A DNA stretch of 64,000 nucleotides, taken from a virus. The notes beneath the pieces are model-generated. The model searched no databases, was not told the DNA's origin, and saw only the letters and a program-made list of their open reading frames with translations. The stretch spans positions 11,573-75,572 of IMG/VR virus record IMGVR_UViG_3300023313_000004, one strand, 5' to 3'. Shown piece by piece: positions 13,131 through 35,341 of the stretch. The position numbers were made by a program, and so were the translations under genes. Positions within the stretch are counted from its first letter, which is position 1, and every line of letters starts with the position of its first letter.

Positions 13131-13154
13131 AGGATTCCTCGTATGTATCATTAG

Positions 13155-13715: not shown

Positions 13716-13876
13716 ACTGCTTTTCTCTCCTGTGTATAGACCCTTGCGTTGGTCTGGTTATCAAAAACAGTGCGATACCCTGCTTCTATATCTATGCCTC
13801 TCTCTTGTAAGTAAGTAAGTAAGGCTACTCGGTCTAGCCCTTCAGCCTTGTGCTCTGGTATTATAACAGTAATCAT
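13712..13876 (-). CDS. Small hypothetical protein (54 aa)
   Basis: Manual translation MITVIIPEHK...ERKAV; ATGA overlaps at both ends. Confidence 0.6.
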   Translation of the reverse strand: MITVIIPEHKAEGLDRVALLTYLQERGIDIEAGYRTVFDNQTNARVYTQERKAV

Positions 13877-14253
13877 TCTTCCTCCGCTGGGGACTCAAAA
13901 TCCTCATTTATGTAATCGTCACCAAATCTCTCTACTTGTCTGGCTCTTAAATTATCTGGGTCGTAGTCTGCCAATAAAAAAGTGGCGTGGGGTATTAACG
14001 CCTTAATAAAGTTACGCTGTGCCTTCTTAGGGGTTATAGCAGCAATGCACACACTTACCCCTTGTTCTGACAGTAGTGCTGCGACTCCTGCCAGTGTTCT
14101 TACATTAGTGTCTCTAGCTTCTGCACTTAATGACCAATTTTTAGACCTAACCCTTACGGCGTGGGAGTCTAACTTAACCCCTTGGAATTGATTAAGTATC
14201 TTTGTTTTTCCTGAGCATGGAGGGCCATAAACCCAAACGACTTTGCCTTTCAT
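13873..14253 (-). CDS. cysC: Adenylyl-sulfate (APS) kinase-like protein, compact
   Basis: VVWVYGPPCSGKT, SLSAEARDTNVRTLAGVAALLSEQGVSVCIAAITP..QR and terminal FESP match the CysC layout. LDGD reads LDSH and the lid is shortened. Confidence 0.7.
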   Translation of the reverse strand: MKGKVVWVYGPPCSGKTKILNQFQGVKLDSHAVRVRSKNWSLSAEARDTNVRTLAGVAALLSEQGVSVCIAAITPKKAQRNFIKALIPHATFLLADYDPDNLRARQVERFGDDYINEDFESPAEEE

Positions 14254-14828
14254 ACCAACACCTCTCTCTTTATACTATCTGCTATTACCTTAATTTTAGC
14301 TAGGTAATGTGTTAAGCCTTTACTATTTATAACCCTTACTGTCTTATACTTGTCTGGGTACCCCTTCTCTGAGGCGTGTTCCTCCCCCCCTGTAGTAGTA
14401 AAGGGGTTATTGGGGCGAATGACATGGATTATTATGCCTCCAGTAGCCCTTACCCACGCTGCCTCATCCTCAAACCTGCAATCACTAAGTACAACATACT
14501 TACTCCCAGCAGCCCCAGCAGCCTCTATCGCCAGCTTTGCTCGTAATACCCAGAAATCACCCCCGAAAGTGCCCCTAATAGCTTCTGTCCCAAACTTCTG
14601 AAGCATATCCCTATGGGTTAGTCCCCACTTAGGGCTCATAGCGGCTTTCCCTTCCTGTGTGTGGAAGGTACTAACGTCCACTCCAAATAAAATAGCTGCT
14701 GCCTTCTTTAGGGGGTCTGCAAAGGCTATCTCTGTTGCATGTAGTGCTGTTACTAGCTCTGAAGCCATAGTGGACTTACCAGAGCCCATAGCACCAGATA
14801 TAGCTATAATTTTAGGTTTAGTCTGCAT
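14250..14828 (-). CDS. Deoxynucleoside monophosphate kinase
   Basis: ISGAMGSGKST, AFADPLK, RDMLQKFGTE, SDCRFEDE, HASE. Confidence 0.92.
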   Translation of the reverse strand: MQTKPKIIAISGAMGSGKSTMASELVTALHATEIAFADPLKKAAAILFGVDVSTFHTQEGKAAMSPKWGLTHRDMLQKFGTEAIRGTFGGDFWVLRAKLAIEAAGAAGSKYVVLSDCRFEDEAAWVRATGGIIIHVIRPNNPFTTTGGEEHASEKGYPDKYKTVRVINSKGLTHYLAKIKVIADSIKREVLV

Positions 14829-16071
14829 TCAAATCTCCAAAATCTTCTTCTTTCCACTCAGAAAAATCCATATTGCTGAAGTCCCAGTTTATCTTAAACG
14901 TGCCTTGTTCACCACTCCTTCCTTTTAGTACACTAACCTCTCTTGATTGGAGGGTTTCCACTGTGTCACTTTGTAACATCCCTAGGACAATACTGGACAG
15001 CTGCCCTATAGCATCTGACCCTGCGATATGTTCTAGCCCAGTGCTATCCCCCGTAGAAGTTTTTACTTTTGTGGCTTCCCTGTTTAGTTGGTACGATAAA
15101 CATGCAGGTATATCTAATTCCGTGGCTAGGTTCTTAAATAACTCGCAGTTTGCCTCTATCCTTGCAGGCTTAGATAAGTAGGTGTCCTTATGCCTAACTA
15201 AGTACGCCCCATCAATAAATAAAACGTCAGGTGTTAGCTGCTGGGATAGCATCCATATATCTTCAGCTGTTGAGCTGAGTGCCCCATCAATAACATAAAA
15301 GGGTACATTAGACTCTTTTACTTCCATCATGGCATGAAAAAAGTCTTTATAGTCTTGGGTGATAAACCCTGCTTTCATTAAGTGCGTTAGGTTTTTGCGA
15401 GTGTACATGGCAGCTAGTCGTTGAAAAATCACCAAGGGCTTCATCTCCATAGACACGAACACTACCGCCTTACCATGCTTCTTCCACGCATTTAGAGCGA
15501 CAAACAACAGTAGGAATGTCTTTCCCATAGCAGGGCGACCAACTATAGAGAGTACATCTCCTCCACCAATACCCCCTGTCATATCATCTAGGAACTCCCA
15601 CCCAAAAGTTAGGGCATAGTCATCCCCCTCCATAATGGTCTGTTTGTATGTACCAAGTAGAGACTCTCTTGCCTCCCTAAAATCCATAATTTTACTACCA
15701 TGGTTTACCCTTACTAACGCCATCACGTCTGCCATGAGAGAATCTAATGCCTTCTCTGGGTTCATATCCCTGAGGGATGTGCTAGCGGATACCACTGCCC
15801 TCTTTAGCATACCATGTAGGTGTTTCTTCTTAACCGCATCCTCGTAGTACTTTAGGGGTTCTGCAGGGGCACTAACTTGCAGCCCGAACTTATGCTCCAC
15901 CGTCTCTACCGCAGGGATAGTGCCGTATTTGGTGACGTGGGTGTGGATGTAATCGTACACCTCTGCCTCATTGGCACCCAAATAAGATGCATCAACATCA
16001 AGGTGTGCAAAGGGGGCTACCTTAGCCCCGATAAGGACACTGTGTATTAAACTCATTCCTGCACTACTCAA
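14818..16071 (-). CDS. dnaB: Replicative helicase DnaB-like
   Basis: GRPAMGKT, VSMEM, FIDG, YQLNRE, GSDAIGQ, LKGRSGE. Confidence 0.92.
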   Translation of the reverse strand: MSSAGMSLIHSVLIGAKVAPFAHLDVDASYLGANEAEVYDYIHTHVTKYGTIPAVETVEHKFGLQVSAPAEPLKYYEDAVKKKHLHGMLKRAVVSASTSLRDMNPEKALDSLMADVMALVRVNHGSKIMDFREARESLLGTYKQTIMEGDDYALTFGWEFLDDMTGGIGGGDVLSIVGRPAMGKTFLLLFVALNAWKKHGKAVVFVSMEMKPLVIFQRLAAMYTRKNLTHLMKAGFITQDYKDFFHAMMEVKESNVPFYVIDGALSSTAEDIWMLSQQLTPDVLFIDGAYLVRHKDTYLSKPARIEANCELFKNLATELDIPACLSYQLNREATKVKTSTGDSTGLEHIAGSDAIGQLSSIVLGMLQSDTVETLQSREVSVLKGRSGEQGTFKINWDFSNMDFSEWKEEDFGDLNAD

Positions 16072-16085
16072 AATAACACCTCCTC

Positions 16086-16670
16086 TTAATCAATTATGTT
16101 CTTAAAATGGTTGGTAATATGGCTCTTAAAAGGTGCTCCGTAATCATCAGATAGTGCTCGCATATCCTCTACATATATCACGGTCTGCTGCCCTTTAGCA
16201 TACCTACTGTACAGCATCCCTAAAATAAGGGACGTTTGCCAGTCTGGAACTCTCCCCCCAGAGGACTGCCTGTAAAAGAAGTTAGGTATAAGTAACACTG
16301 TGGCATCGACTGTGCCTCCCTTCTTATACACCTCTATAACCTCTTGTATGGTGAATACCTGTGCTCGAACAAAGTTACGAAGGAAGCAGCCTGCTAAAGC
16401 AAACATCTTAACCCCTACATCTCCACATGCACCAGAGTAAACCAATCCCCCGTTCTCGGAGAGGGGGAGCTTCCTTAGTGCCCGAACCCAGCACCTCTCC
16501 TCCTCACCACAAAAATCCGATAGCTTAGTGTACACCATCTGCTTAGGGATATGGGCATCAGTAACGATACTCTCCAACTCTCCTACCAGCCTAGCATGTT
16601 TAGTGGGGTCTAGTACCCCAGAGGAGTAGCACTCCTTATACCGCAAGACGTGGGCATCAATATCATCCAT
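16086..16670 (-). CDS. Probable helicase loader (degenerate DnaC/IstB-like)
   Basis: Between initiator and DnaB. GLVYSG and LLIP..ILGMLYSRY..TVI follow the DnaC layout, but the Walker motifs are degenerate. Confidence 0.5.
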   Translation of the reverse strand: MDDIDAHVLRYKECYSSGVLDPTKHARLVGELESIVTDAHIPKQMVYTKLSDFCGEEERCWVRALRKLPLSENGGLVYSGACGDVGVKMFALAGCFLRNFVRAQVFTIQEVIEVYKKGGTVDATVLLIPNFFYRQSSGGRVPDWQTSLILGMLYSRYAKGQQTVIYVEDMRALSDDYGAPFKSHITNHFKNIID

Positions 16671-17727
16671 GTGTGTCTCCTTGTAATTCAAGTTCTATTG
16701 CTTCCATCTCTGCTAAAGTCACTTTCTTAGCCAAGTTACTGCTACTAATGCTAACGGAGGGGGAAGAAGGCTTAGGATTTAGGGTACCCAAGGACACTGA
16801 AGGGGTATAGAGGCTCTGCTTAAAGAATTGGGGGATGTAGTCTACACTAACCAACATAAAACCTAACTGTGGCTGTTTAGGGGGGTTATGCCCTCCAGAC
16901 TTAGACTTAACAAAGTAAGAGAACGAATCCCAGTTTAGCAAAGCATACTGGTAAGCCTCTGAGTTCTCAGCCCCCAATTTGGAGATAAGGTGCTTAAATT
17001 GCCCAATACTCTTAGAAGTTAGGGGTAAAGGGGTCATATCGTACTCCTGCCTACAAGTTTCTAACCAGAATTTAGACACATTATTGTACGAAAAATCCCC
17101 TAGTAGGGAAGGTTTTGCCTTCTCTAGGGAAATATCTAAAATATCAGTAACAGTAACAGAAGCCTTTATATACTTAGGTTTCTTCCCTGATTTTAGGGTT
17201 GTCCCTAGAGGTTTGTCAGGGAAAGATTCATCTTTTCCTTGTATTCTCTTGGTAGTCTCTGTAGAAGTATAATGGTTGCATAGTGCCATTTTGGCATTAT
17301 GCATAGTGCCATTTTGGCACTTTGGGATAGTGCCATTTTGGCACTTTGGGAAATATTCCCCTTTCTCCTCTTTTTCCTGTTCTACAGCCCAGTCCTCTAC
17401 AGCCTTATTTAGGGTGATTTTCTCTAGGCAATACCACTTTGTTCTATCCGTATTCATCCTATTGTATTTTGAGGTGCTTAGTATTACCCCTGCCTCCTCT
17501 AGCTCCTTCATATCCCTCTTAAGGGTTCTTTCTGAATAGAAGGGTAACTGCTCTATCCATGCAGGGTATGTATTCCACACCCACGAGATACCATCCCTGA
17601 TATTCTTTTGGTATTTAGCCCAGTACTGTATTTGTTGTATGAGTATCGCTTTCTTTAGTCCAAATACCTTTATTAGGGTAGGTTGTACTACTAAAGGGGA
17701 CTCCTCTATTAAGTATTTCATGTTCAC
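16663..17727 (-). CDS. Replication initiator (lambda O/DnaD-like wHTH)
   Basis: GLKKAILIQQIQYW..WVWNTY..W..QLPFYSERTLKR..DRTKWY; carries internal iteron repeats. Confidence 0.8.
   Translation of the reverse strand: MNMKYLIEESPLVVQPTLIKVFGLKKAILIQQIQYWAKYQKNIRDGISWVWNTYPAWIEQLPFYSERTLKRDMKELEEAGVILSTSKYNRMNTDRTKWYCLEKITLNKAVEDWAVEQEKEEKGEYFPKCQNGTIPKCQNGTMHNAKMALCNHYTSTETTKRIQGKDESFPDKPLGTTLKSGKKPKYIKASVTVTDILDISLEKAKPSLLGDFSYNNVSKFWLETCRQEYDMTPLPLTSKSIGQFKHLISKLGAENSEAYQYALLNWDSFSYFVKSKSGGHNPPKQPQLGFMLVSVDYIPQFFKQSLYTPSVSLGTLNPKPSSPSVSISSSNLAKKVTLAEMEAIELELQGDTHG
17277..17351. repeat. Three iteron-like repeats (candidate replication origin)
   Basis: ATAGTGCCATTTTGGCA at 17280, 17303 and 17327; each core TGCCA-TTT-TGGCA is palindromic. 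Confidence 0.75.
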
Positions 17728-17942
17728 CCCCTCCCATAATAGGGTAGCCCTGCTATGAAACCCCCCAATGTCGCCTTAGTAGTACTAGGTATCTCTTTTT
17801 TCTTTTGTGGTCTTAGGGTTGCCCTGAGCCGTTGTACTGTTGTGGCACTACGACCTAGCTCTAGTCCTATCGCCTTATTGGACTCCCCTCTCGTGATACC
17901 CTCTGCCATAAGGGTTAGTTCCTCTTTAGTAACCCTACCCAT
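17724..17942 (-). CDS. Small HTH protein
   Basis: GESNKAIGLELGRSATTVQR. Confidence 0.65.
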   Translation of the reverse strand: MGRVTKEELTLMAEGITRGESNKAIGLELGRSATTVQRLRATLRPQKKKEIPSTTKATLGGFIAGLPYYGRG

Positions 17943-18447
17943 TAGTAGTATCTCCCTGTAAGCTACCCAACACCCCTAGCCTTTCTTTACTAGAAGTGCC
18001 CCACAAGTAGTCCTCAGCAACCCCCAGTACCATCTCTTTGAGTTCCTCTGTCTTCCTCTTCACCTCTTGCAGCCCAAGGATTGAGTCTAGTTCAAATAAT
18101 AGTTGGTCTACAATACTGGAGGCACTCTTTATAGCACTTCCAAACTCTACTCTCTCTGATAATAGTATTGCGGACACCTCCATACTTAAATAACCTACCC
18201 CCATGTAGTCATAAAGGATTGGTAATGTTTTTCTCGCGTAGTCCTTATCTACTTCCCCTCCTACTCCTGCTACAGTAAGAACAAAAACTATACGCAATAA
18301 CTTACTGTCCTTAGGGTATGCAGATACTCTTGCTGATACCTGCATCTTACTATCAACATACACCAATACTTCCTCTGCCGTCTTGCTCATACTTAACTCT
18401 CCCTTTGTTCCCATACACCCCTTTAAACTGCCCGTTACTTCATACAT
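17935..18447 (-). CDS. Hypothetical protein (start may be 18390)
   Basis: ORF in the operon. Confidence 0.55.
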   Translation of the reverse strand: MYEVTGSLKGCMGTKGELSMSKTAEEVLVYVDSKMQVSARVSAYPKDSKLLRIVFVLTVAGVGGEVDKDYARKTLPILYDYMGVGYLSMEVSAILLSERVEFGSAIKSASSIVDQLLFELDSILGLQEVKRKTEELKEMVLGVAEDYLWGTSSKERLGVLGSLQGDTTNG

Positions 18448-18462
18448 ACGAATACCCCTCTC

Positions 18463-18552
18463 TCATAGCATCCAATCTAGGGCATAAATATATAACCCTA
18501 AGGCTAGGTATCCTGCCGCTGCGTTGCGTATGTTGTACCAATGTAGTTCCAT
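18463..18552 (-). CDS. 29-aa hydrophobic peptide
   Basis: MELHWYNIRNAAAGYLALGLYIYALDWML; AGGAG RBS; first ORF after a promoter. Confidence 0.45.
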   Translation of the reverse strand: MELHWYNIRNAAAGYLALGLYIYALDWML

Positions 18553-18585
18553 ATATCTCTCCTATCTATTTATGCACTTAAGGGC

Positions 18586-18614
18586 ACAGTACCCTCTTTT
18601 CTTTCACTTGTCAA
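18586..18614 (-). promoter_or_regulatory. Sigma70-type promoter
   Basis: TTGACA-17 nt-TACTGT. Confidence 0.6.
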
Positions 18615-19758
18615 CTAGCAACTCTCTTTTTACACAGACCAAACAATGCTGCACTACTTCTGCAGGGGTGTACCACCCTTTGTGTTCTTCTGGGGGGAAT
18701 ATAGGGGCAACAGGCGTGTCTAAGCACAAGGAGGTGATGTACTCCTCCGCAAAGAGTATAGCCTCTGCACGGGGCATCCCTGCAAAGGTGATAATCGTGT
18801 CTACTCGTCCTGCCCTGTATAGCTCTAGGGGCAAGGCCTTTACGTCATTAGTTGTCATAATCGTCAGGACTCTAGTGGTGTGTTCTTGTAGCCACCATAG
18901 GATATGGGATAGGAGTCTATATTGAACCCCATCATCGTCCTTGTTATTAAATATCTTTTCTACTTCGTCAATGAGCATTATGCAGGGAGCTTCGTTATCT
19001 ACTTGGTTAAGTGCTTTTGTTAAGTTACCCTCACTCTCCCCTACATATTTGCCCATAAGACCCCCTATATCCAATCTGTATAGGGGTATATTTAGCTCGT
19101 TCGCTAAGTGCTTAGCACCTAGAGTTTTACCTGTCCCTGCATCCCCACCAAATAAAAGTCCTCTAGGGGTAAGGGCGGCATGGGGGCTATCTAAAAAGAA
19201 AGGTGCTTCTTCCATAACCCATTTCTGTACAGTCACCTGAGGCGCATAGAAGGGGGTGGTAGTATCTACTTGGGTAAGTCCTCTTGTAGTTGGGGTATAG
19301 AGCCTTCTAGTCTTAGCCACCCCTGTAGCAGTAAGGCTACCATCCCTAGACATAGTAAGCCTAGCCACTTCCCCCACATCCTTTAAAGTTAATCCACCCA
19401 TAAAAGGAAGGATACCATTGACGGAGGAGTCGTCTGGCAATACTGAGCGCAGGAGCTGACCTACCATAGTCTTGGGGGTAGGGATAACCCCTGCATCATA
19501 GGCAGAGATATTATGCCCCTCTGGGTTTATAATTATTAGAACACACTCTTTTTCTACCAGCAAACTATACAGTCTTTCTGGTGAGGGTTTACTCATATAC
19601 CCAATGCAGTACGTAAACTCATGGGCTGTGGGGCTGGAGGGGGTGAACGGAACAAAATCTTTTCCTGTTACATGAGATAACACCTCAACCACATTAACTA
19701 GGTCTGTGGTGCTAACTTCTATAAGAGGGATACCTGATTCTACAACTAACTTAAGCAT
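18604..19758 (-). CDS. AAA+ ATPase (Ycf46/SpoVK-like)
   Basis: GDAGTGKT, MGKYVGESE, LIDEVEK, TTN, RAGRVD. ATG at 19758 has an AGGAG RBS. Confidence 0.88.
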   Translation of the reverse strand: MLKLVVESGIPLIEVSTTDLVNVVEVLSHVTGKDFVPFTPSSPTAHEFTYCIGYMSKPSPERLYSLLVEKECVLIIINPEGHNISAYDAGVIPTPKTMVGQLLRSVLPDDSSVNGILPFMGGLTLKDVGEVARLTMSRDGSLTATGVAKTRRLYTPTTRGLTQVDTTTPFYAPQVTVQKWVMEEAPFFLDSPHAALTPRGLLFGGDAGTGKTLGAKHLANELNIPLYRLDIGGLMGKYVGESEGNLTKALNQVDNEAPCIMLIDEVEKIFNNKDDDGVQYRLLSHILWWLQEHTTRVLTIMTTNDVKALPLELYRAGRVDTIITFAGMPRAEAILFAEEYITSLCLDTPVAPIFPPEEHKGWYTPAEVVQHCLVCVKRELLVDK

Positions 19759-19789
19759 ATACTGACTCCTTGTATTGACACTGGGAATC

Positions 19790-19818
19790 AGTCTACACCT
19801 CTTTATTTCATTTGTCAA
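19790..19818 (-). promoter_or_regulatory. Sigma70-type promoter
   Basis: TTGACA-17 nt-TAGACT. Confidence 0.7.
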
Positions 19819-19826
19819 CGGAGGGG

Positions 19827-20267
19827 CTACTTTATAAGTAGGAGTATCCCTAGTAGCACCTCTAAGGCTGTATGCTTAATGTCATTTATCTCTGCCCATT
19901 TACGCTCCTCTGCTAGGGCATCTCGCAGCCTCTCCGCAGCTCTCAAAGTAGCTCTATCCGCCACTTCTATATTTTTCATCGCGTCCCTTAACAGGCGTAG
20001 CTGTCTAGCCTTATCGGATAATGCCTTATCTAGGGCAGTAACGGTAAGCCTATCTAACTTGTGCTGCTCGTGCCGTAGGGACACGGATGAAGGGGTTAGG
20101 TCAGGCATACTAACTAGGGGGGCTAACCTAGTTTCAGTGTATGGGGCTATAGCAATAGCATCTGCCAGATAGGGTTGTGCATCTATAGCCTCTAACCTAT
20201 CTATCAAAGTATTGTTAGCACAGCCGCCCAATAAGAGCAGCACCACGACCAACCACCTATTATTCAT
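19827..20267 (-). CDS. Lipoprotein, probable o-spanin
   Basis: Signal peptide with lipobox LLGGC; last gene of the lysis cassette. Confidence 0.6.
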   Translation of the reverse strand: MNNRWLVVVLLLLGGCANNTLIDRLEAIDAQPYLADAIAIAPYTETRLAPLVSMPDLTPSSVSLRHEQHKLDRLTVTALDKALSDKARQLRLLRDAMKNIEVADRATLRAAERLRDALAEERKWAEINDIKHTALEVLLGILLLIK

Positions 20268-20619
20268 TATTTAAGTACGCCAGTAGTTCTTTGGTGGTTC
20301 TCTTAGGGTACTTTCGTAAATGTACTCGTGCTGCCCTTTGTTGTAGGGCCACCGCCTCTTTTTTATGTTCTTCTGATAACGTACCTGCAGTTACGGATTC
20401 CCGTACACTGGTCTGTGCCGCAGCCATCGCTGTAGCTCGTAGTATATCTTCTTCCATATCTATCGCAGCAGCCCTAGAGGCAAAGCTTTCTTTAGCCGCA
20501 GAGAACTTAGCCCTACCTAGGAGTGCAAAAAGCAATACTACTACTGCTCCTGCCAGTAACCCTGTGTGCGCTTTAATAAAGGCCCACCCTTCTAATAACA
20601 TATAATTGACTTTATTCAT
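20260..20619 (-). CDS. Probable i-spanin
   Basis: One N-terminal TM helix plus Ala-rich coiled coil; precedes the lipoprotein. Confidence 0.55.
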   Translation of the reverse strand: MNKVNYMLLEGWAFIKAHTGLLAGAVVVLLFALLGRAKFSAAKESFASRAAAIDMEEDILRATAMAAAQTSVRESVTAGTLSEEHKKEAVALQQRAARVHLRKYPKRTTKELLAYLNNE

Positions 20620-20926
20620 TTAGTATCTCCTCCTTCCTTTTCTCATGTATTACTATTTCATCAGTAATATCATCTAAATCATCTCGGAGGGAGTTTTGCT
20701 CCTCCCTATCCTCGGCTCTACGCAAGGCTCTTTTAATTTCTCGTTTTTCTTTATTATAGGAGTTTATCTCCATCTGGATTATGGAGGCTTTTACTTGCCT
20801 CATATCCGCAGCCTCTGCAAAAGTTGCTTGCATCCAGAAAACAGAACCTACTAACGCACTAGCCACCCCTACTACACCCATAATAACCCCCATGTACACT
20901 CTTAGTTTCTCCGCGAAAGAAGGCAC
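20612..20926 (-). CDS. Membrane protein (TM + coiled coil) in lysis cassette
   Basis: N-terminal hydrophobic helix followed by a charged coiled coil. Confidence 0.5.
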   Translation of the reverse strand: MPSFAEKLRVYMGVIMGVVGVASALVGSVFWMQATFAEAADMRQVKASIIQMEINSYNKEKREIKRALRRAEDREEQNSLRDDLDDITDEIVIHEKRKEEILNE

Positions 20927-21177: not shown

Positions 21178-21205
21178 AGTTACTCTCCTATAGGGGGTTA
21201 TTTAT

Positions 21206-21811
21206 TTACGCTAAGCTAGCAAGTATGCCTGCAGCCATGGCCTCTGCCAAATAAGAGTGCTTATTGGATAATAGCCACTCCTCACAAAAACCATTATTAT
21301 CTATATACCCTATTTCTGGGATAAAGGCAGGGCAGTTAGTCTTCCTTAAGAAATAATCCGCTTGTTCTGGAGGGTTATTACCCCAGTACCACCCCTGCCT
21401 AGCACCTAAGTCCTCTAGCCCTATGTACTCGGACATGCGATAAGACATCTCAGCAGCCTCTCCCCGCCTAATGTAAGCTAGGCTATCCTGCTGACCATAA
21501 GAACCATGAGGGCAGTACATAACCATACAGCCATGACCCCTTGTGTCATCCCTATCCTCAGGGTCTAACCTATCGAAGTCAGCATTAAAGTGTACGTCCA
21601 CAGCCATATCAAAAGAGCCAGCATTTATAGTATTAACCTTTCTCCTCAGACCCCCACCAACCACTACGGGGGTATGCCCAAGTGCCTTTAGCAGGTCGAA
21701 CAACACCCCTACTACTACACTAGCCTCATCAAACTCATTTAAGGAGTACTTCTTATTAACTGCACCTTTTGCAGATTGCTTATGCCCAGCGCACAACGCT
21801 ATTTTAGCCAT
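21206..21811 (-). CDS. Endolysin, N-acetylmuramoyl-L-alanine amidase (Amidase_3)
   Basis: IALCAGH, NEFD, VDVHFNA, FLRKTNCPAFIPEIGYIDN. Confidence 0.9.
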   Translation of the reverse strand: MAKIALCAGHKQSAKGAVNKKYSLNEFDEASVVVGVLFDLLKALGHTPVVVGGGLRRKVNTINAGSFDMAVDVHFNADFDRLDPEDRDDTRGHGCMVMYCPHGSYGQQDSLAYIRRGEAAEMSYRMSEYIGLEDLGARQGWYWGNNPPEQADYFLRKTNCPAFIPEIGYIDNNGFCEEWLLSNKHSYLAEAMAAGILASLA

Positions 21812-22280
21812 GATTATAACCCTTAGCCTCACCTACATATATCGGTTGGGGGTTTCCCATAACCGAAAGTATTGCCTTTGCCTTCAGCCTTTTAATCGGC
21901 GCGTAGGGGATATTAAGTTTTTTGGATAGCACTTCTAGTACCCACTCATGGCAGTACACTTTACTACTATCCTCTACCCCTGCTAGCCACCCAAAGACAC
22001 CTAACCAATCATACTTCCTACCCATTTGGGCATTTACCCACCGCAGTACCTCTTCTTGGGTAGCAGCGGTATCAGGAGCACCCACATCATAAATGGCTAC
22101 CTGCCTAGAGCCATAATCTGATAATCTCTTGCCAAACCACACATACCCTCGTACCTCAGAGGCATCATATATCTGACCACCCACTACTACTGCAGAGTGG
22201 GAGTAAGGACTCCTAGTTATAATAGATATAAATATGGAGGCTAAGCTTGTGTAATCCGTGTTAAAAAATACTACTTTCAT
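21804..22280 (-). CDS. Permuted papain-like amidase (YaeF/YiiX, NlpC/P60)
   Basis: TRSPYSHSAV, GRKYDW, YCHEWV. Confidence 0.8.
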   Translation of the reverse strand: MKVVFFNTDYTSLASIFISIITRSPYSHSAVVVGGQIYDASEVRGYVWFGKRLSDYGSRQVAIYDVGAPDTAATQEEVLRWVNAQMGRKYDWLGVFGWLAGVEDSSKVYCHEWVLEVLSKKLNIPYAPIKRLKAKAILSVMGNPQPIYVGEAKGYNHG

Positions 22281-22282
22281 AA

Positions 22283-27617: not shown

Positions 27618-27629
27618 AGTTATAACCCC

Positions 27630-27980: not shown

Positions 27981-29484
27981 GTAAGACCTCTAATAACTCT
28001 GAAAGATATTTCTTATAGGGTGTCGCCCTGTTCACGCTAGAACTATACAAAGGCTTAACTACTTGGGCTAAGGACGCTGTACGCACGTTCCTTTTTAGGT
28101 TATAAAAGGATGTGCATCCCTCCTCAAAAGGTACCCCTATATAATTAAGAATGCCTTGGGTGGTCTCCCTCTGGTTAGTGACCATATCCTCATAGTTAAC
28201 TTGATGTATCGTTCCTTTGGGAAGGATACTGCCCCATAAGTCCATTAGCCATAGGTGGTGATTGTACTCCTTGCCTAACTCTGTTTGGTCAAAGGAATAA
28301 TCATGCCTATGTGCAAAGAGGGTAGTAAGGCAAGAGAAACAGTTATCTACTGCATCTCTTTTACAATAAATAAATTTGGCAGTTGGGAACATTGCGTAGA
28401 TAAGAGGGATAAACTTGTAGTTTGCAGGCATTTTATCCACCGCAAATTTAGTGTCAAAATGCCTCACCCTATCGGATAAGTATGTCTCTGCTAGGTCTTC
28501 TGGGCAGGAAGGAACATCACTACTATGCTGCGCCCAGAGCTTACTAAAATCATGGGCGGACTCTGATACAGACATTAGTTCCCCAAGGGCAGTAATATCA
28601 CTATGGCTACCTAGTATCTGCTCTACCAAAGTAGTACCACTTCTTGGCATACCAAAAACAAATACTAAGGGGGATTCACCCTCTGTAGGAGGCATCTCTT
28701 TAAAGAAGTCCTTAGTGAATACCTCTTTATACTTCGTAGCTATATCTTTATAGTTAGGATAATTAACCCTACTCTTCTTCACAGTGTCATTGGCGGTGTT
28801 GTACGCCCCCCAAGAACCCTCTACATCCCCTCTTTGCTCCAAGAGCCTACCTAGCCCATTATATAACATAGGTAATTTATCTTTAGGGGTGGAAAGCCTT
28901 GATAAGACCTCTCGTACTTTCGTCTCTGTGCATACAGAGGAAGCGGCATGGTCAAATAGAGGGAGTGCGTGGCAGTACGCTAGCCAAGAATCAGGCCTAG
29001 CAGAGATAATATCTTCAAGGTAAGAACAAGAGACTTTTATCTCAGAGCACTCAACTAATAACTCCGCCACCACCAATTTTAGTTCAAGGTTCTCTCCGCA
29101 GTTTATACCCCTCAATACTTCAGATGCTTTAATAGACTCAAATTCAGAGATAAGGGCTTTAGCATATCCTAGTCCTATACTAGCATCAAAGGGGTTAAGG
29201 GTGTATGCCCTCCCCATTAGAGAGGTATCCCCCATTAGGCTGCCTACGATAATAAGGACACTAGGGTCATCACTATAAAGGCGTAGTAGTGTAGCAGCCA
29301 CTTTTTTAGCTTCATCTATATGCCCCTGAGCGTGGGCAATTTGTGCCATACCTATCAAAGCATCCTTATTGTCTGGGTCTTGGGATAATACGATATTAAA
29401 CCCCTGCTCCGCAGCGAGGGGGTTTCCTTGGTCTAAATACATGGTCGCGCTATTTAGGTGCTCTATAAGCTGCCCTTTTTTCAT
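27967..29484 (-). CDS. TPR-repeat sulfotransferase
   Basis: N-terminal TPR helices; PAPS loop FVFGMPRSGTTLVEQIL, DKMP.N, R...DNCFS, YEDMV, VRTAS..QV..PLY. Confidence 0.93.
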   Translation of the reverse strand: MKKGQLIEHLNSATMYLDQGNPLAAEQGFNIVLSQDPDNKDALIGMAQIAHAQGHIDEAKKVAATLLRLYSDDPSVLIIVGSLMGDTSLMGRAYTLNPFDASIGLGYAKALISEFESIKASEVLRGINCGENLELKLVVAELLVECSEIKVSCSYLEDIISARPDSWLAYCHALPLFDHAASSVCTETKVREVLSRLSTPKDKLPMLYNGLGRLLEQRGDVEGSWGAYNTANDTVKKSRVNYPNYKDIATKYKEVFTKDFFKEMPPTEGESPLVFVFGMPRSGTTLVEQILGSHSDITALGELMSVSESAHDFSKLWAQHSSDVPSCPEDLAETYLSDRVRHFDTKFAVDKMPANYKFIPLIYAMFPTAKFIYCKRDAVDNCFSCLTTLFAHRHDYSFDQTELGKEYNHHLWLMDLWGSILPKGTIHQVNYEDMVTNQRETTQGILNYIGVPFEEGCTSFYNLKRNVRTASLAQVVKPLYSSSVNRATPYKKYLSELLEVLHGNH

Positions 29485-29897
29485 AGAGTTACACTCATAG
29501 AGGAGATAGATACTTTATCAGAGGTAGTAATGACTGTCCCAGCAGCCCCGTCTGCCAGCTCCATATCCGCACCTGAGCCTACAGCCCCAACATCCCCATC
29601 CATAATGTGGGCGGCTAAGGAAGGCACAATATTGTCGTACATTCTGAACCATGTAGCTGACCCATTAGCATCCCCTAGTAAATCGGAGGCGGTTGCGTTT
29701 AGGGTCGCTGTGCGTAAAACAGAAGCATTAAATGGCGATGCACTTAATGGTATAGTTGCTAAGGTTATGCCTGTGGCGGCAGTGTCAGGTGTTAAAGGTC
29801 TAACCCCAGTGCGTAGCTCTAAGCAGCCATTGGAGAAAGGTATTAGGAAGGAATCTATAGCTGTATTCGCCCCCAAAATTGAAATAGAATAAGCCAT
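29481..29897 (-). CDS. Small virion structural protein (paralog of next ORF)
   Basis: LELRTG.RP, ATWFRMYD, DGDVG..GSGADM. Confidence 0.65.
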   Translation of the reverse strand: MAYSISILGANTAIDSFLIPFSNGCLELRTGVRPLTPDTAATGITLATIPLSASPFNASVLRTATLNATASDLLGDANGSATWFRMYDNIVPSLAAHIMDGDVGAVGSGADMELADGAAGTVITTSDKVSISSMSVTL

Positions 29898-29920
29898 TAT
29901 TAGTCCTCTAAATGATTAAG

Positions 29921-29949
29921 AAAAAAGGAGGGCTGTGAAGCCCCCCCTA
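29921..29949 (-). terminator. Intrinsic terminator
   Basis: GGGGGGCTTCACAGCCCTCC followed by TTTTTT. Confidence 0.7.
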
Positions 29950-29956
29950 GTGGGTA

Positions 29957-30376
29957 TTATGCGTTACCAGCTGTGCGAGTCAAAGTGTTAATGTTTACCG
30001 TTTGAGTATTAGCTACAGATACGTTATCCATAGTCATATCACCACCACCGCCTGTAGCAGTTACCGTTCCTTGCTCATGGCATACTGTGCCTGCTGAGTC
30101 ATAGATACGGTAGGCTAACACTGCTGTACCTGCTGCGGCTGCTGCGATACCAGTAACGGTAAACGGTGCGCCCAAGATAGTTTTTGCACCTGCTGATGCA
30201 GTAGTAGACCAATCTGCAGGTAGTGTGCCTGTAGCGATAGAGACAGCTGTAGGTGCTGTACCGCAGTTTACAGGGTTTGCTCCGTCATATAAACGAACAA
30301 TAGGAGAGGTACCAATAGTGGTCTCCCATGCGTCTAGCTGAGCATTTCTTACGGATACTGAATATTGTAATGCCAT
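29957..30376 (-). CDS. Small virion structural protein, probably high copy
   Basis: MALQYSVSVRNAQLDA..YRIYDS.GTVCHEQGTVT..GGGGDM; strong AAGGAGG RBS; own terminator. Confidence 0.7.
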   Translation of the reverse strand: MALQYSVSVRNAQLDAWETTIGTSPIVRLYDGANPVNCGTAPTAVSIATGTLPADWSTTASAGAKTILGAPFTVTGIAAAAAGTAVLAYRIYDSAGTVCHEQGTVTATGGGGDMTMDNVSVANTQTVNINTLTRTAGNA

Positions 30377-30430
30377 GGCGTATAGCCTCCTTACTTAAGT
30401 GCGACCAACCCTAGATGCCCCGAATAGTCT

Positions 30431-30838
30431 TTACAACTCTCTTACGATAGGAGGGTCGCCCTTCCTACGGTGGGGGTACAAGGCTAAACCTTCTTCCCCT
30501 AGCACAATAAACCTACGAATAGCTATGATATATGCGTAGGCAAATAGCGTTAGAGACAGGGAGAGCAGTTCTTCTACAATAGCATAGGCCTTATCCTCAG
30601 GGGCTATTAGGGTATAATAAATATGCAGTGTTTGTAATACACAGACTAGGGATGCCGCGACTGCACCTGAGAACACTACAAGGATATTAGCATACATCTG
30701 TAGCCTTTCGTACACACTACGTTGGGGGTTGTTTGAGTATTGTTCCTTAGGTTGAGTATAAATATTAGCTAGCTTATATAGTAGGCAGATACACCCTATG
30801 TATGCGGCTAGGTTTATTATATCAATATATAGGTACAC
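30431..30838 (-). CDS. Membrane protein (3 TM)
   Basis: Three hydrophobic helices. Confidence 0.55.
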   Translation of the reverse strand: MYLYIDIINLAAYIGCICLLYKLANIYTQPKEQYSNNPQRSVYERLQMYANILVVFSGAVAASLVCVLQTLHIYYTLIAPEDKAYAIVEELLSLSLTLFAYAYIIAIRRFIVLGEEGLALYPHRRKGDPPIVREL

Positions 30839-30840
30839 CC

Positions 30841-31158
30841 TTAGCTCTTCCCTACTGCGACTAGAGCCGCTGCTGCGAAGCCCAGAAATATTATAGCAGC
30901 AATACTTTTTCCTAATGAGGAGAAGAACCCTTCCCCCATACTATCCATCCTATGCATCCAAGTCTGAAGAAACTTATGCTCCTCGTCATGGGTGGTGTGT
31001 AGCTCCGCCTTTATAACCTCTGCCACTCTTCTTAGCTCTGAGGCTTCGTGCTCTTGTATCATTACTTTTACAGCGGCAAGAGTCTCTTCCCTAGACCTAG
31101 AGTGTTCTTCCTTAATAAGTTGCATAAGTACCTGTAAGTCTGAGCCCTCAATAGCCAC
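30841..31158 (-). CDS. Coiled-coil protein with C-terminal TM
   Basis: Charged helix followed by a C-terminal hydrophobic segment. Confidence 0.55.
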   Translation of the reverse strand: MAIEGSDLQVLMQLIKEEHSRSREETLAAVKVMIQEHEASELRRVAEVIKAELHTTHDEEHKFLQTWMHRMDSMGEGFFSSLGKSIAAIIFLGFAAAALVAVGKS

Positions 31159-31162
31159 CCTA

Positions 31163-31480
31163 CTACACCTGTACTTGTACTACTACAGCACCTGTACCTG
31201 TTCTAACTGCCTGCACAAAGTTGTACTTAGCTGGGAGAACGTAAAGAGACCCTACGGTGGTCAAAGCAGCAACTGTATAAATATCTACCCATGGGGCGAG
31301 GGGGGTTAACTTAGCCTGTACCACTACGGATGTAGCTGCAGGGGTAGGGGATACTTGGACTATACTAGGGGCAGAGGCCACCAAAGATGTGTTAGCGTCT
31401 ATACCTGTAATAGCTAGGGCTGTATCTAGTATCGTGTATGCAGGGCTCTCCTGCTTATCTTGCATAGTAATTAAAGGCAT
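31163..31480 (-). CDS. Hypothetical virion protein
   Basis: Beta-sandwich-like composition; RBS before ATG at 31480. Confidence 0.55.
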   Translation of the reverse strand: MPLITMQDKQESPAYTILDTALAITGIDANTSLVASAPSIVQVSPTPAATSVVVQAKLTPLAPWVDIYTVAALTTVGSLYVLPAKYNFVQAVRTGTGAVVVQVQV

Positions 31481-31528
31481 ATATCTCTCCAAAGTGTTGC
31501 GCTACGGTAGCCCCTCCTAGGGGGGCAA

Positions 31529-31753
31529 TCAAATATAGAATATGGGCAGGGTGCTAACCCCTTTTACTTGTCCTGTGATAATACCATTCCTCACCCTTAC
31601 ATCCACACCTACAGGGTGCGACCCCTCTAATTCCACCGTACCCTTGATGGTAGAAAGGAGGACTTTAGACCCCTGACTAGATAGGACGGTGCCAGTATAA
31701 GAATCCCCCGATGATAATAGGAGTCTTAAGGACGCTAGGCTGTTAGTAGGCAT
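31529..31753 (-). CDS. Small tail-tip protein
   Basis: OB-like short strands; end of the tail-tip operon. Confidence 0.5.
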   Translation of the reverse strand: MPTNSLASLRLLLSSGDSYTGTVLSSQGSKVLLSTIKGTVELEGSHPVGVDVRVRNGIITGQVKGVSTLPIFYI

Positions 31754-32048
31754 ATCTAAGGACTTGTAACTCTGTAACTGTATCTGTAGCACTGCTTAGG
31801 TGTCTTATGCGGATTATCTTGCCTCTCCATGAAGACCCTGTGAGGGCATCAAAGGCTTCCAACAACATACCCCTAACAACCCCTGCGCTATAAATAACCG
31901 TCAAAGTTACGGTACTACCCGCCAAAGAATTGGCATCTAGCTCACTAGCACCTCTAGCCAAGGCTACGGAGGTGGTAGAAAGAAGGGGGGACACTATGCC
32001 TTCACCAAAGGTACTTCCCCCCACCCTAGATACAACAATATCTATCAT
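31743..32048 (-). CDS. Tail-tip protein
   Basis: Coupled ORF; A.ARG..EL..WRGKI pattern. Confidence 0.55.
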   Translation of the reverse strand: MIDIVVSRVGGSTFGEGIVSPLLSTTSVALARGASELDANSLAGSTVTLTVIYSAGVVRGMLLEAFDALTGSSWRGKIIRIRHLSSATDTVTELQVLRYAY

Positions 32049-32563
32049 ACAATAGGGTCTATAGAGGCGTTGCCAGTAATATATACTACTATGGAGAACA
32101 CTGATTCTCCTCCCATAGTGGCAGGAGATGCAATTTTAAATGCTTCAAAACCAGTAGTGTACACTACTTTTAATGCCCCTACTCCTGTCGTAGAAGCCAC
32201 AAGTTGGTTCTCCTCTGTAACAGTTATGGAGCCTAGGCTTTTCCCTAGCCATGTGAAGCTACTAAGGGATTTTACAGGTTTGCTAGAGGTAGCAACATTA
32301 GAACCCGCATATGTGAGTATCTCTGTTACCTCCATAGTCCCAGAACCCATACTAATAACAGAACCATAAGAGGCCTCCTGAGTTATCAGGTTTTGGGATA
32401 CTGAAGCAGTGGTGTATAGTAGGTAATATGCATCGTCTCCCGGAAAAAAAGAGGTCTTGCCTTTGTTATATCCGTCTGCCCTACCGTCTATTTCTGCAGA
32501 AAGTATGCCTGTGGCATCTAAGGTACCAAATTGGACTACTATGCTAGTGGTTACTTCACCCAT
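32045..32563 (-). CDS. Tail-tip protein
   Basis: EILTY..SKPV..FTWLG..V.Y.T segment is similar to the C-terminus of the 32563-34485 protein. Confidence 0.55.
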   Translation of the reverse strand: MGEVTTSIVVQFGTLDATGILSAEIDGRADGYNKGKTSFFPGDDAYYLLYTTASVSQNLITQEASYGSVISMGSGTMEVTEILTYAGSNVATSSKPVKSLSSFTWLGKSLGSITVTEENQLVASTTGVGALKVVYTTGFEAFKIASPATMGGESVFSIVVYITGNASIDPIV

Positions 32564-34485
32564 TACGTTGCCTCCACGACAAATTGTGCTTTACTTCCTA
32601 CTACGCCAGAAACTCGATACTTTTGGTACTTAGTGGCGTATGTTACCTCTGCTAAGGACTCTGAAGGTGTGCTGGACGTTAATGTGTTGCTTCCAGCGAC
32701 AAAAGTAACGCCGCCTAACGGAACATTCAACCAAAGCACCTTGGATAGGGTATAGATAGGCTTGCTTAGGGAGGCACTACCCCTAACAAATTCCACCGTT
32801 TCTGTTAGTGTCTCAGAGACCCTACCCTTGTTTACCATAGTGGTGTTTGCACCAGAGGTGTGACGCACAGAGTAGTTACTTCTTAGTGGGCTCAAAAAGA
32901 CTTTTAAGTCCCCTACTGAGGGGTCTAGCTGGTCAGCTTTATATTCTGCACTATCCCCGTATGATGCATCAGAATCAGCTATCCGTATCTTATCGAATTT
33001 TTTGGTGATATTAGCTGATTCTGAGGAAGAAAGGACATCCGTATAGTCACTATATACCCTATCTGGGACATGCTCTGCATATTGTTGTACAGGTATAGGG
33101 AATTTCTTTCTGGCATACAGCTTCCCATCAGGGGCGCACTCCAGAACCCCCCCAGCGGCGGTCACTATATTTTTTACTATAGATAAAGGGGCTGCGCTAG
33201 AGGCACTCAATCTGTTAGGGGGGATAATCCAATCCACAATACCCCAAGTAACAGTACCTACCCCCAGTAACTCATCTGCGACACTACTTGCTAATGTGGG
33301 GGTGCTCCATACTTTAGTCACAGCCTCGGCATAGTCACCTGTGTAGAGGATAGTGGGGCTAATACCTGTAACAGTAAACGTCCTCTCGGAGGGGGAGGAC
33401 TGACCCCTAGATTTAGAGGGGGTAATCATAGCGTACACTTCCCCCATTAAGTGCAGGGAAAAAGGCTCCCCTAGCACAAAAAGGGCTAAAGCCCCTTCTG
33501 AGACCAAGCCTAAAGTACAGTTCCATGCAGGGTTGCCCTCCTCCGCTACTACCTCCGCAGATAACAAGGGTATCTTTGCATTGCCTATCATAACGTAGGG
33601 GGGGATATTTGTTATAGTGGTAGTAGCCTCATCTCTTAAGCTCCATCTCCCAGAGATAGACGTAGAGACTTTGTTACCTGTACCAAGGGAGTAAGGTATA
33701 TCGACTCCTGCCTCCACAGGAAAGGTGAAGTCACATAATGACTGAAGGCTAGAAGCGGCTACGCTCCGTAGGGTATAGGGCATACTAATATGCGAGCCAA
33801 GAGTAAGACTAAGAACATCATATCCTATGGCCACATCAGACCCAACCACACTTGCATTACTATATTGAAAAGATACTGACCCCTGCGTAGTGCTCCGTAA
33901 TGAGTAAAGGCTCTGGGTGTAGGCTGCTACAGTCACAGAGTTCCCATACACCCCCGTATTAGAGGAGGCAACCTTACTTCTTAGGGTGTACACCCCTCCT
34001 GTAGAAGACAATACGGTAGCAGCGTTGGAGTAGGTAGATTTTGCTGTGGAGGACACTTTGCTCCTTAAAGTATAACTGCTCCCCACAGAGGCAGATACGG
34101 TAGTACTATCGGAGTATGTTGTTAGGGCGGAGGAGGCAACCTTACTTCTTAGGGTGTACTGGGCGGAGGCACTGGAGGCTACCGTAGCGGCATCACCATA
34201 GACCCCCGTAGTACTAGACCCTGTGATACCAGTGTAGGTGGATGTTAGGCTACCCTCTACTGGGGTGTATAATAAAAGGTCATATACTCCCAGACCCCCA
34301 CCACTATACACCTTAGAGGTGGATATATAAGGCAAGGCTAAAGAGCTGCCCATAGGAGCACTCCAATTACCCTTAAGTGCAGAGGATACCAGCAGCCCAT
34401 ATTCCGAGGGGAGGGCACTACCTACCCTAACCACCATGGCTGACCCATTTATATACCCAGCATTTATTGCACTTATATTAGGCAT
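32563..34485 (-). CDS. Tail hub-like protein with N-terminal 14-aa Tyr-periodic repeats
   Basis: YTLRSKVASS-type repeats followed by a hub-like domain (IVTAAGGVLECAPDGKL). Confidence 0.6.
   Translation of the reverse strand: MPNISAINAGYINGSAMVVRVGSALPSEYGLLVSSALKGNWSAPMGSSLALPYISTSKVYSGGGLGVYDLLLYTPVEGSLTSTYTGITGSSTTGVYGDAATVASSASAQYTLRSKVASSALTTYSDSTTVSASVGSSYTLRSKVSSTAKSTYSNAATVLSSTGGVYTLRSKVASSNTGVYGNSVTVAAYTQSLYSLRSTTQGSVSFQYSNASVVGSDVAIGYDVLSLTLGSHISMPYTLRSVAASSLQSLCDFTFPVEAGVDIPYSLGTGNKVSTSISGRWSLRDEATTTITNIPPYVMIGNAKIPLLSAEVVAEEGNPAWNCTLGLVSEGALALFVLGEPFSLHLMGEVYAMITPSKSRGQSSPSERTFTVTGISPTILYTGDYAEAVTKVWSTPTLASSVADELLGVGTVTWGIVDWIIPPNRLSASSAAPLSIVKNIVTAAGGVLECAPDGKLYARKKFPIPVQQYAEHVPDRVYSDYTDVLSSSESANITKKFDKIRIADSDASYGDSAEYKADQLDPSVGDLKVFLSPLRSNYSVRHTSGANTTMVNKGRVSETLTETVEFVRGSASLSKPIYTLSKVLWLNVPLGGVTFVAGSNTLTSSTPSESLAEVTYATKYQKYRVSGVVGSKAQFVVEAT
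33962..34159. repeat. 30-bp exact direct repeat, 168 nt apart
   Basis: GAGGAGGCAACCTTACTTCTTAGGGTGTAC at 33962-33991 and 34130-34159. Confidence 0.85.
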
Positions 34486-34531
34486 AGAAACCCCTCATCA
34501 AAAAAGCCCACTTTACAGGGTCATAATACTA

Positions 34532-35341
34532 TTATCTATCGGGGTAGAATAACTCATAGAACCATGAGCCTCTGGCTTTTATATCAGAGCTTATATGCTC
34601 CCCTAGTATATCGTCCCAGTCTGTGGGGGGCGCGGATACAGAACCCTGTACCTCATGCTCTCCGTAGGGGGCATGAATATGGTCATGCTCGAAGGTAGTC
34701 CCCACTACCCCCTCATAAGTGTGCCCCTCAAACCATGGCAGACCGCAGTAATCATACACTCTTTTTAGCTCTCGCTCTGGGTCAGCACCCAAGTCCTCCG
34801 CTCTTACCACTAGCATACTAGAAAGAAACCCTCTCTGGTGTGCTTCCAATAACATTTCTAACGCATTACCTAGGGGGGAGTCAGAGAGATACCCCTCCAC
34901 CCTATTTTGCAGGGTAATACCTTTGTTATCCTTCCCTAGCGGTGTAAGAAGAGTAGGATTGCCTCTATGTAACTTTTCTAAACTGGCAACACACCCTCTA
35001 ATATCCCTAATAGGAACTATCACTTTTGGTTGGGGGTACATTGCTAGCAGAAGGTCAAACTTCCCTAACCAACCCCTACTCTTATCAAAACATTCGCCTT
35101 TAGCTGTGTCTGCAAAGTAACCTCGTACTACTCCTCTCATAGCACCTAGCATACTCCTATCTAAGGTGTCCTTATCTAGGGCTCTACAGGTAGAGGAGTT
35201 ACTCCTTGTCCCCACCATACCAGTAAGTAGCTCCACAAGGGGGCTAGTAGGTGTGGTGTGGAACTCAGGGTTTTGTGCCAATAATGCAGTCAAGATAGTG
35301 GAGTTAGACCTAGGGAGTCCTCCTAGGAAGTGTACCGTCAT
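34532..35341 (-). CDS. Sulfotransferase
   Basis: FLGGLPRSNSTIL..LLAQNP, FDKSRGW, RDIR..VASLEKL, RAEDL..DP. Confidence 0.88.
   Translation of the reverse strand: MTVHFLGGLPRSNSTILTALLAQNPEFHTTPTSPLVELLTGMVGTRSNSSTCRALDKDTLDRSMLGAMRGVVRGYFADTAKGECFDKSRGWLGKFDLLLAMYPQPKVIVPIRDIRGCVASLEKLHRGNPTLLTPLGKDNKGITLQNRVEGYLSDSPLGNALEMLLEAHQRGFLSSMLVVRAEDLGADPERELKRVYDYCGLPWFEGHTYEGVVGTTFEHDHIHAPYGEHEVQGSVSAPPTDWDDILGEHISSDIKARGSWFYELFYPDR

Follow-up and report, generated by a model that had tools for sequence, protein, structure and literature searches.

A siphovirus-like genome with two sulfotransferase genes in its tail-fibre modules and a truncated APS-kinase-fold protein may sulfate its own virion

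The virus record IMGVR_UViG_3300023313_000004 comprises 75,572 bp, of which bases 11573-75572 form the 64,000-nucleotide stretch analysed here (hereafter the window). It encodes two different sulfotransferases, each embedded among tail-fibre genes, and a 126-residue protein resembling adenosine 5'-phosphosulfate (APS) kinase, CysC, the enzyme that makes the sulfate donor 3'-phosphoadenosine 5'-phosphosulfate (PAPS). Judging from these genes, this uncultured tailed phage, designated G000, may sulfate virion components of its own. The case is solid for the fibre-linked sulfotransferases; the kinase is unorthodox and dispensable, though plausible as a helper. The first sulfotransferase, TPR-ST, joins a tetratricopeptide repeat (TPR) region to a Sulfotransfer_3 domain; the second, ST2, is a stand-alone Sulfotransfer_3 enzyme; the kinase-like protein is called P0001. 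All genes of interest lie on the minus strand, and the three open reading frames (ORFs) were confirmed at the window coordinates collected in Table 1. An exact terminal repeat of 127 bp indicates that the genome is complete.

Both sulfotransferases score above the Pfam cut-off for Sulfotransfer_3, and P0001 does so for APS_kinase, as the original prediction had anticipated in proposing these searches. ST2 and TPR-ST share 24% identity over 222 residues, in keeping with the earlier description of the second enzyme as dissimilar. In TPR-ST, the segment PRSGTT (residues 280-285) and residues E302, K351, R376 and S384 are conserved in 94-100% of 120 homologues. PRSGTT is the 5'-phosphosulfate loop, and R376 and S384 form the 3'-phosphate motif. 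E302 and K351, 97-99% conserved, align with the GE and NK of tyrosylprotein sulfotransferase (TPST), and we take them to be equivalent to Glu99 and Lys158, the catalytic residues of TPST2. In ST2, all family invariants are present (R11, K87, R89, R112, S120, E122, R147, E218, D220 and H229) and the RD...S motif is kept. Its PAPS loop reads PRSNST, a departure flagged as a caveat at the outset and correctly read; because the position of the Asn is S, L or G in the closest ST2 orthologues, the caveat is minor. Both enzymes look, from their sequences, catalytically intact and PAPS-dependent.

Copies of TPR-ST in phage contigs are 56-64% identical to it, and below them come cellular proteins at 27-41%, most of those with names being proteobacterial; only the three phage-type copies exceed 41%. 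TPR-ST is a member of a very large cellular family annotated "TPR-containing sulfotransferase family protein". Nearly all members of the ST2 family are metagenomic proteins without names, encoded on contigs as long as 340 kb; the family also includes cyanophage proteins. ST2-like genes were found in only 10 of 50,697 cultured-phage records.

The TPR-ST gene occupies the third place in a cassette of seven genes, in the order 139-aa protein, 138-aa protein, TPR-ST, 116-aa protein, 447-aa protein, 154-aa protein and periodic fibre. Overlaps join it to both neighbours, 4 nt long with the 138-aa gene and 14 nt long with the 116-aa gene, as had been seen on first inspection. The 139-aa protein is 71-83% identical to its counterparts in three other viral records, G001, G002 and G003, and Caulobacter phage Seuss has a homologue that carries the annotation "virion structural protein". 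Between the genes for the 139-aa and 138-aa proteins lies a strong terminator-like hairpin, an arrangement that would suit abundant expression of the former and weaker read-through into the 138-aa/TPR-ST operon. The 447-aa protein shows a short match to phrog_20658, "head decoration"; a look-up in the ESM Atlas returned low-confidence matches only. The 1085-aa periodic protein is rich in Ser, Thr and Gly (S 15.9%, T 12.1%, G 12.9%, with Ser plus Thr at 28%) and poor in basic residues (K 0.8%, R 0.1%), contains many repeats, each with a Q-[EG]-G-D motif, and has an N-terminus in common with a 285-aa protein of G001. In G002 the version of this fibre is 1370 aa long and aligns to the 1085-aa protein in many registers.

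The same cassette is found in G001 at 48-71% identity, at the end of the structural operon. G001, at 37.9 kb, has an exact terminal repeat of 239 bp and so is also complete, and its terminase, portal and capsid are unrelated to those of G000. Phage lineages thus exchange the cassette as a whole, which is the strongest argument that TPR-ST works with the structural proteins encoded beside it.

ST2 has a neighbourhood of its own. The original prediction placed it two genes downstream of the main tail fibre and coupled to what precedes it, an order that we confirmed: orf106 overlaps the ST2 gene by 4 nt and abuts the gene for the 1066-aa fibre-like protein. In all five ST2-bearing phages (G000, G002, G003, G004 and G006), ST2 sits directly behind the fibre gene, the only thing that may intervene being a small ORF of about 90-106 aa; the ORFs in the place of orf106 in G004 and G006 encode 89-91 aa of dissimilar sequence. 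In G002, G003 and G004, the block encoding the 640-aa tail protein lies upstream of the fibre gene, and ST2 is still behind the fibre. The ST2-linked fibres range from 424 to 1066 aa, and the part they have in common is the C-terminal 400 or so residues. Both sulfotransferases occur in G002 and G003, whose capsid proteins are 81% identical to that of G000, and ST2 occurs in G004 (77%) and G006 (59%); none was found in six complete, more distant relatives. Across phages, then, each sulfotransferase keeps its own fibre-gene neighbours, a pattern that fits the earlier suggestion of one enzyme per fibre system, directed at the virion and not at general metabolism.

The interpretation we favour, while giving it somewhat less than even weight, is that the sulfotransferases act on their own fibre modules, using mainly host PAPS, with the kinase as an optional helper. 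Both would be working PAPS-dependent enzymes of tail-fibre modules, presumably expressed late and together with those modules. Sulfation would most likely take place within the infected cell, no later than assembly, each enzyme acting on a component of its own fibre set. The candidate acceptor of ST2 is the C-terminal domain that is conserved in the long fibre; those of TPR-ST are the 138-aa and 139-aa immunoglobulin-like proteins, the 447-aa protein and the periodic fibre. P0001 would probably serve as an early-expressed minimal APS kinase, topping up PAPS from host APS.

The original prediction described P0001 as a CysC-like kinase among nucleotide genes. Its setting is as described: the gene overlaps the upstream gene for a deoxynucleoside monophosphate (dNMP) kinase by 4 nt, and a dUTPase gene is nearby. 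Its family is supported by a match to Pfam APS_kinase (PF01583) at 41.7 bits (E 1.6e-10), above the gathering cut-off of 21.1, which spans model positions 1-102 of 152 only. No PHROG family matched. Folding from the single sequence gave a model of no use, with a predicted local distance difference test (pLDDT) score of 44, and an alignment of 38 sequences was used instead; the resulting AlphaFold model has a pLDDT of 91.8 and four strands. The matches listed by Foldseek for this model (TMq 0.63-0.83) are APS-kinase entries, except for two Penicillium ATP-sulfurylase entries (1i2d and 1m8p) and one gluconate kinase at rank 38. On this model, P0001 has the APS-kinase fold.

In CysC of Mycobacterium tuberculosis (PMC4373884), the phosphosulfate of APS is bound by Arg483 and Arg497; within LDGD, the first Asp is the Mg-water ligand and the second is the proposed catalytic base; a lid of about 30 residues includes Lys562 and the stacking Phe576; and a fifth strand and C-terminal helix shape the pocket for the adenine of ATP. 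We mapped P0001 onto these features. It retains the P-loop, as GPPCSGKT, the Mg-water Asp, the I-[ST]-P strand and both phosphosulfate arginines, R34 being invariant and R47 present in at least 90% of the 38-sequence alignment. With respect to canonical CysC (the M. tuberculosis enzyme and Synechocystis 5cb6), P0001 is alike in these elements and in its fold (TMq about 0.8), and differs in the LDSH motif, the cut lid and the missing strand 5 and last helix. The original prediction had cautioned about LDSH, correctly. In sum of sequence and model, P0001 is not an orthodox CysC, and conversion of APS and ATP to PAPS is its proposed activity only.

The subfamily with LDSH is small. Among 1.84 billion representative sequences P0001 has only two close relatives, of 122-142 aa. 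A tblastn search of cultured phages with P0001 gave no match, and neither P0001 by itself nor a four-member subfamily alignment retrieved any locus from viral and metagenome contigs; one contig, G029, was recovered only through the broader 38-sequence alignment. The changed position is His (DSH) in four of the five known subfamily copies, the G029 fragment included, and Glu (DSE) in the fifth, and either residue could serve as a general base. Of the other viral APS-kinase homologues, 71 of 80 have [ILV]DGD. A role for P0001 as a kinase in DNA hypermodification was also considered; no supporting gene was found in the replication and nucleotide block scanned from 10.4 to 22 kb, and the idea is kept only within the alternative, discussed below, that P0001 is unrelated to the sulfotransferases. 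Two ORFs of about 50 aa follow the P0001 gene (window 13565-13876, minus strand), the first beginning in an ATGA overlap with its stop codon.

Elsewhere among viruses, genes for APS-kinase-like proteins and sulfotransferases recur together. In the broader search, 295 viral stretches proved to carry APS-kinase-like genes. Among the 44 viral records of at least 30 kb that were kept, 18 also encode Sulfotransfer_3, and in 10 of those 18 less than 1 kb separates the two domain matches; several of the 18 are related, so that we estimate at least 10 distinct arrangements and not 18 independent events. A sulfotransferase ORF lies within 3 kb of a mini APS-kinase-like gene at 14 of 80 loci. At five loci an ST2-family gene (300-365 bits against the ST2 profile) ends at the kinase start, and at a sixth a weaker Sulfotransfer_3-like ORF does so. 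A negative control on dNMP-kinase neighbourhoods yielded only three loci and was dropped. The partner kinases are 111-170 aa long with a lid trimmed like that of P0001, and in two of them the C-terminal strand and helix are missing as well. Trimming by itself is therefore no argument against a role of P0001 in sulfation. Two loci with full-length APS kinases stand apart (L086, 921-3691; L140, 1714-5197). These kinases carry a hydrophobic N-terminal extension of about 70-85 aa and have Sulfotransfer_3-like paralogues for neighbours: in L086 a tandem run of three follows the kinase, and in L140 there is one on either flank. They look like a membrane-anchored PAPS supply with a battery of sulfotransferases.

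G029 (L158, IMGVR_UViG_3300023313_000070), from the same sample as G002, is the only other viral contig with a kinase of the LDSH subfamily. The kinase gene begins by a GTGA overlap behind a 138-aa phrog_3758 gene, which is 63-65% identical to the gene that precedes TPR-ST in G001-G003. In the same contig (1299-4323), the large terminase is split over three ORFs of 170, 442 and 345 aa with an HNH-like ORF of 82 aa between them, which suggests intein or homing-endonuclease insertions.

Several observations weigh against the interpretation given above. P0001 reaches 40.3 bits with the equivalog model TIGR00455, whose cut-off is 138.7, and falls likewise far under the cut-offs of the remaining APS-kinase models. 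The residue at the position of the proposed catalytic Asp is His. In the shortened lid, where the alignment is uncertain, Glu is aligned to Lys562 and the FTG phenylalanine is absent, and the protein ends just past the FE.P motif, without the fifth strand and last helix. The gene lies 14 and 21 kb from the sulfotransferase genes, in the nucleotide-metabolism block, and other genes hold its syntenic place in G002 and G004. The G029 contig is a 6-kb fragment that ends inside the kinase gene, so the link that it provides is a single, incomplete observation. The co-occurrence of kinase and sulfotransferases that had been expected in relatives was not found: an APS-kinase-like ORF is present in none of the seven other sulfotransferase-bearing viral records, a permissive profile search included (five relatives by major capsid protein, the unrelated G001, and G028; G001 is complete and six are fragments). 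The kinase is equally absent from all 28 other viral records examined, which comprise the major capsid protein relatives and the sulfotransferase-bearing records. What stands of that expectation is the pairing in other viral contigs and the coupling in G029. Given its absence alongside sulfotransferases, in the complete G001 among others, the kinase is dispensable; G001 keeps TPR-ST without it, and host PAPS must therefore suffice there. As to the acceptor, each fibre protein has 0-2 acid-flanked tyrosines, which is no enrichment over other proteins of the phage. The ST2-family genes of cultured cyanophages are not fibre-linked: in Synechococcus phage S-SRM01 the homologue is beside a glycosyltransferase and a sugar epimerase, in a glycan cluster, and in S-SKS1 and S-SCSM1 it is not adjacent to fibre genes. 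Finally, literature searches found no sulfation measured on any phage virion and no account of phage sulfotransferases acting on virions; viral cysC is listed in the literature as a metabolic gene.

A quite possible alternative is that P0001 has nothing to do with the sulfotransferases. It would then be a kinase for another nucleotide or 3'-hydroxyl group, or a non-catalytic domain that binds APS or PAPS, and PAPS would come wholly from the host. Besides the altered active site, the low equivalog score and the absence from every sulfotransferase-bearing record examined, its start/stop coupling to the dNMP kinase gene and the nearby dUTPase gene agree with this. So does the first of the two Penicillium fold matches: the C-terminal APS-kinase-like domain of that ATP sulfurylase binds PAPS without catalysis. 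On the other side, both phosphosulfate arginines are kept, His or Glu at the changed site could act as the base, equally trimmed mini-kinases adjoin ST2-family genes in many viral contigs, and G029 ties the subfamily to the 138-aa partner gene of TPR-ST.

A second alternative, unlikely in our judgement yet of some weight, is that the sulfotransferases act not on the virion but on small molecules or on host envelope glycans such as lipopolysaccharide, capsule or exopolysaccharide precursors, for example to block superinfection or to aid release; the fibre neighbourhood would then simply mark the place where accessory genes usually insert. The closest relatives of TPR-ST outside phages, which are cellular, have no assigned role and are mostly proteobacterial where named, are compatible with this, as are a weak match of ST2 to the model of the Nod-factor sulfotransferase NoeE and the cyanophage homologues just described, one of them in a sugar cluster. 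Weighing the other way, the neighbours are kept through rearrangement and across unrelated backbones, and start/stop overlaps tie these genes to structural genes. Both genes are in the late block shortly before lysis, and no integrase family was found in the complete genome, which makes long-term surface conversion of a lysogen unlikely.

If the fibres are modified, the acceptor chemistry has to be considered. Neither glycosyltransferase family GT1 nor GT2 was found in the complete genome, and a glycan acceptor built by the phage is therefore unlikely; no Pfam glycosyltransferase domain occurs among the tail-region proteins. The original prediction had proposed sulfation of Ser/Thr/Tyr-rich virion fibres or of attached glycans, with the TPRs recognising the protein substrate; no result here supports Ser, Thr or Tyr of the fibres as the acceptor, or recognition of a fibre by the TPRs. 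We know of no enzyme for Ser/Thr sulfation. A stricter version of the proposal, in which fibre proteins are sulfated directly with no glycan, by one sulfotransferase per fibre system and with a His-type minimal APS kinase helping, seems doubtful to us. As to supply, no ATP sulfurylase was found in the complete genome. A mini HxGH nucleotidyltransferase was considered as a candidate and rejected: the genome has no CTP_transf_like gene, and an HxGH motif is lacking from the 112-aa ORF that follows the kinase gene. With neither enzyme present, APS would have to come from the host.

That the sulfotransferase genes are recent passengers with no function for the phage is very improbable: the origin of TPR-ST in a large cellular family and the lack of sulfotransferases in the six complete, more distant relatives are outweighed by full-length orthologues at 38-64% identity in several phages, with invariant residues intact and neighbourhoods conserved.

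As a surface modification, sulfation is well known from eukaryotes and from a few bacterial signals. Among the nearest known systems are the rhizobial NodPQ with NodH/NoeE and the Xanthomonas RaxPQ with RaxST, in which a PAPS supply is paired with a dedicated sulfotransferase. G000 is like these loci in having an APS-kinase-family gene and PAPS-using Sulfotransfer-family enzymes in one genome. It differs in being a phage, in its 126-aa truncated LDSH kinase and lack of ATP sulfurylase, and in that kinase and sulfotransferase genes are not adjacent and the latter lie among tail-fibre genes. The mini APS-kinase and ST2-type pairs of uncultured viral contigs share with G000 the sulfotransferase family, the trimmed lid and, in two of the partner kinases, the missing C-terminus; here, in contrast, the genes are 14-21 kb apart, the kinase subfamily has DS[HE] and not DGD, and a TPR-bearing sulfotransferase is added in a mobile cassette of its own. 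The best solved-structure relatives of both enzymes are TPST1/2 (PDB 3ap1, 5wri and 8w5z), which are remote (E 5.8e-10 and 3.8e-05). TPR-ST aligns with them at PRSGTT, at the base Glu and at the Lys; unlike TPST, it has an N-terminal TPR domain, and the fibre proteins lack the enriched acid-flanked tyrosines. In concept, the nearest precedent is the virion glycosylation of mycobacteriophages, which Freeman et al. in 2023 reportedly attributed to glycosyltransferases encoded in the structural operon. The concept in common is that of a modifying enzyme, encoded among structural genes, that decorates virion proteins of the same phage; in G000 the chemistry would be sulfation in place of glycosylation, and neither GT1 nor GT2 was found.

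If the stricter proposal of direct fibre sulfation is true, no bacteriophage virion would have been known before to undergo post-translational sulfation, and the TPR-ST cassette would be a mobile unit of fibre plus modifying enzyme exchanged between unrelated phages. Sulfotransferases that decorate receptor-binding proteins would give a phage an extra, enzyme-encoded control over host recognition, over stickiness to sulfated or cationic surfaces, and over particle stability. The locus makes a clean test case, with a complete genome, two different sulfotransferases, short lists of acceptors and no GT1 or GT2 found. The LDSH mini-kinases would show either how little of an APS kinase is needed for activity, or a new use of the fold in ligand binding.

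Table 1. Features of the window discussed in the text, by window coordinate. Percentages are amino-acid identities to the protein of G000.
Feature	Coordinates	Strand	Matches and remarks
dUTPase	12663-13151		in block of nucleotide genes
P0001, truncated APS-kinase-fold protein, 126 aa, LDSH subfamily	13873-14253	minus	PF01583
dNMP kinase	14250-14828	minus	Pfam DNMK 59.3 bits; phrog_139 153.7 bits
Amidase	21206-21832		follows the 1085-aa fibre-like gene
Periodic Ser/Thr/Gly-rich fibre-like protein, 1085 aa	22560-25817	minus	last gene before lysis
Cassette protein, 154 aa	25810-26274	minus	48% in G001, 35% in G002
T/G-rich cassette protein, 447 aa	26274-27617	minus	64-65% in G001 and G002
Cassette protein, 116 aa	27630-27980	minus	67-69% in G001 and G002; no family match
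TPR-ST, TPR plus Sulfotransfer_3 enzyme, 505 aa	27967-29484	minus	Sulfotransfer_3 133.8 bits; TPR_19 41.7 bits
Paralogue of the 139-aa protein, 138 aa	29481-29897	minus	phrog_3758 59.1 bits; start/stop-coupled to TPR-ST
Terminator-like hairpin	29925-29948	minus	10-bp stem, 6 GC pairs, T-rich tail; consensus match only
"Virion structural protein", 139 aa, cassette gene 1	29957-30376	minus	phrog_3758 72.7 bits
Tail protein, 640 aa, downstream of ST2	32563-34485	minus	phrog_24698 and phrog_6079, "tail protein"
ST2, stand-alone Sulfotransfer_3 enzyme, 269 aa	34532-35341	minus	Sulfotransfer_3 64.9 bits; phage-rich family phrog_27463 103.5 bits
orf106, 106 aa, between fibre gene and ST2	35338-35658	minus	no family match
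G/T/S-rich fibre-like protein, 1066 aa, upstream of ST2	35658-38858	minus	weak YadA_head repeat
Tape measure, 1397 aa	43095-47288		
Capsid	51086-52075		

The remainder of the genome has a siphovirus-like layout, with portal, capsid, major tail protein and tape measure all found. From high to low coordinates, the portal, capsid, major tail protein, tape measure and distal tail genes are followed by the 1066-aa fibre-like gene, further fibre-like genes down to 22560, the amidase, and the replication and nucleotide genes. The capsid protein is 50-56% identical to those of siphoviruses of Stenotrophomonas, Vibrio and Rhodobacter, and no near-identical DNA was matched among cultured phages. An 850-aa ORF (window 57707-60259, minus strand) matches PHROG families for DNA polymerase, HNH endonuclease and intein-containing proteins, in agreement with the inteins in the polymerase noted when the DNA was first read. 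Outside the window, a 256-aa protein (G000:3607-4377, equal to L077:1024-1794, minus strand) matches PAPS_reduct in its N-terminal half at 26.8 bits, barely above the cut-off, and is thus a second PAPS-related fold within the same genome. Its gene adjoins that of a C-5 cytosine DNA methylase (161.7 bits; G000:2777-3556), and the protein is more likely of the DNA-modification type than an enzyme of sulfur assimilation.

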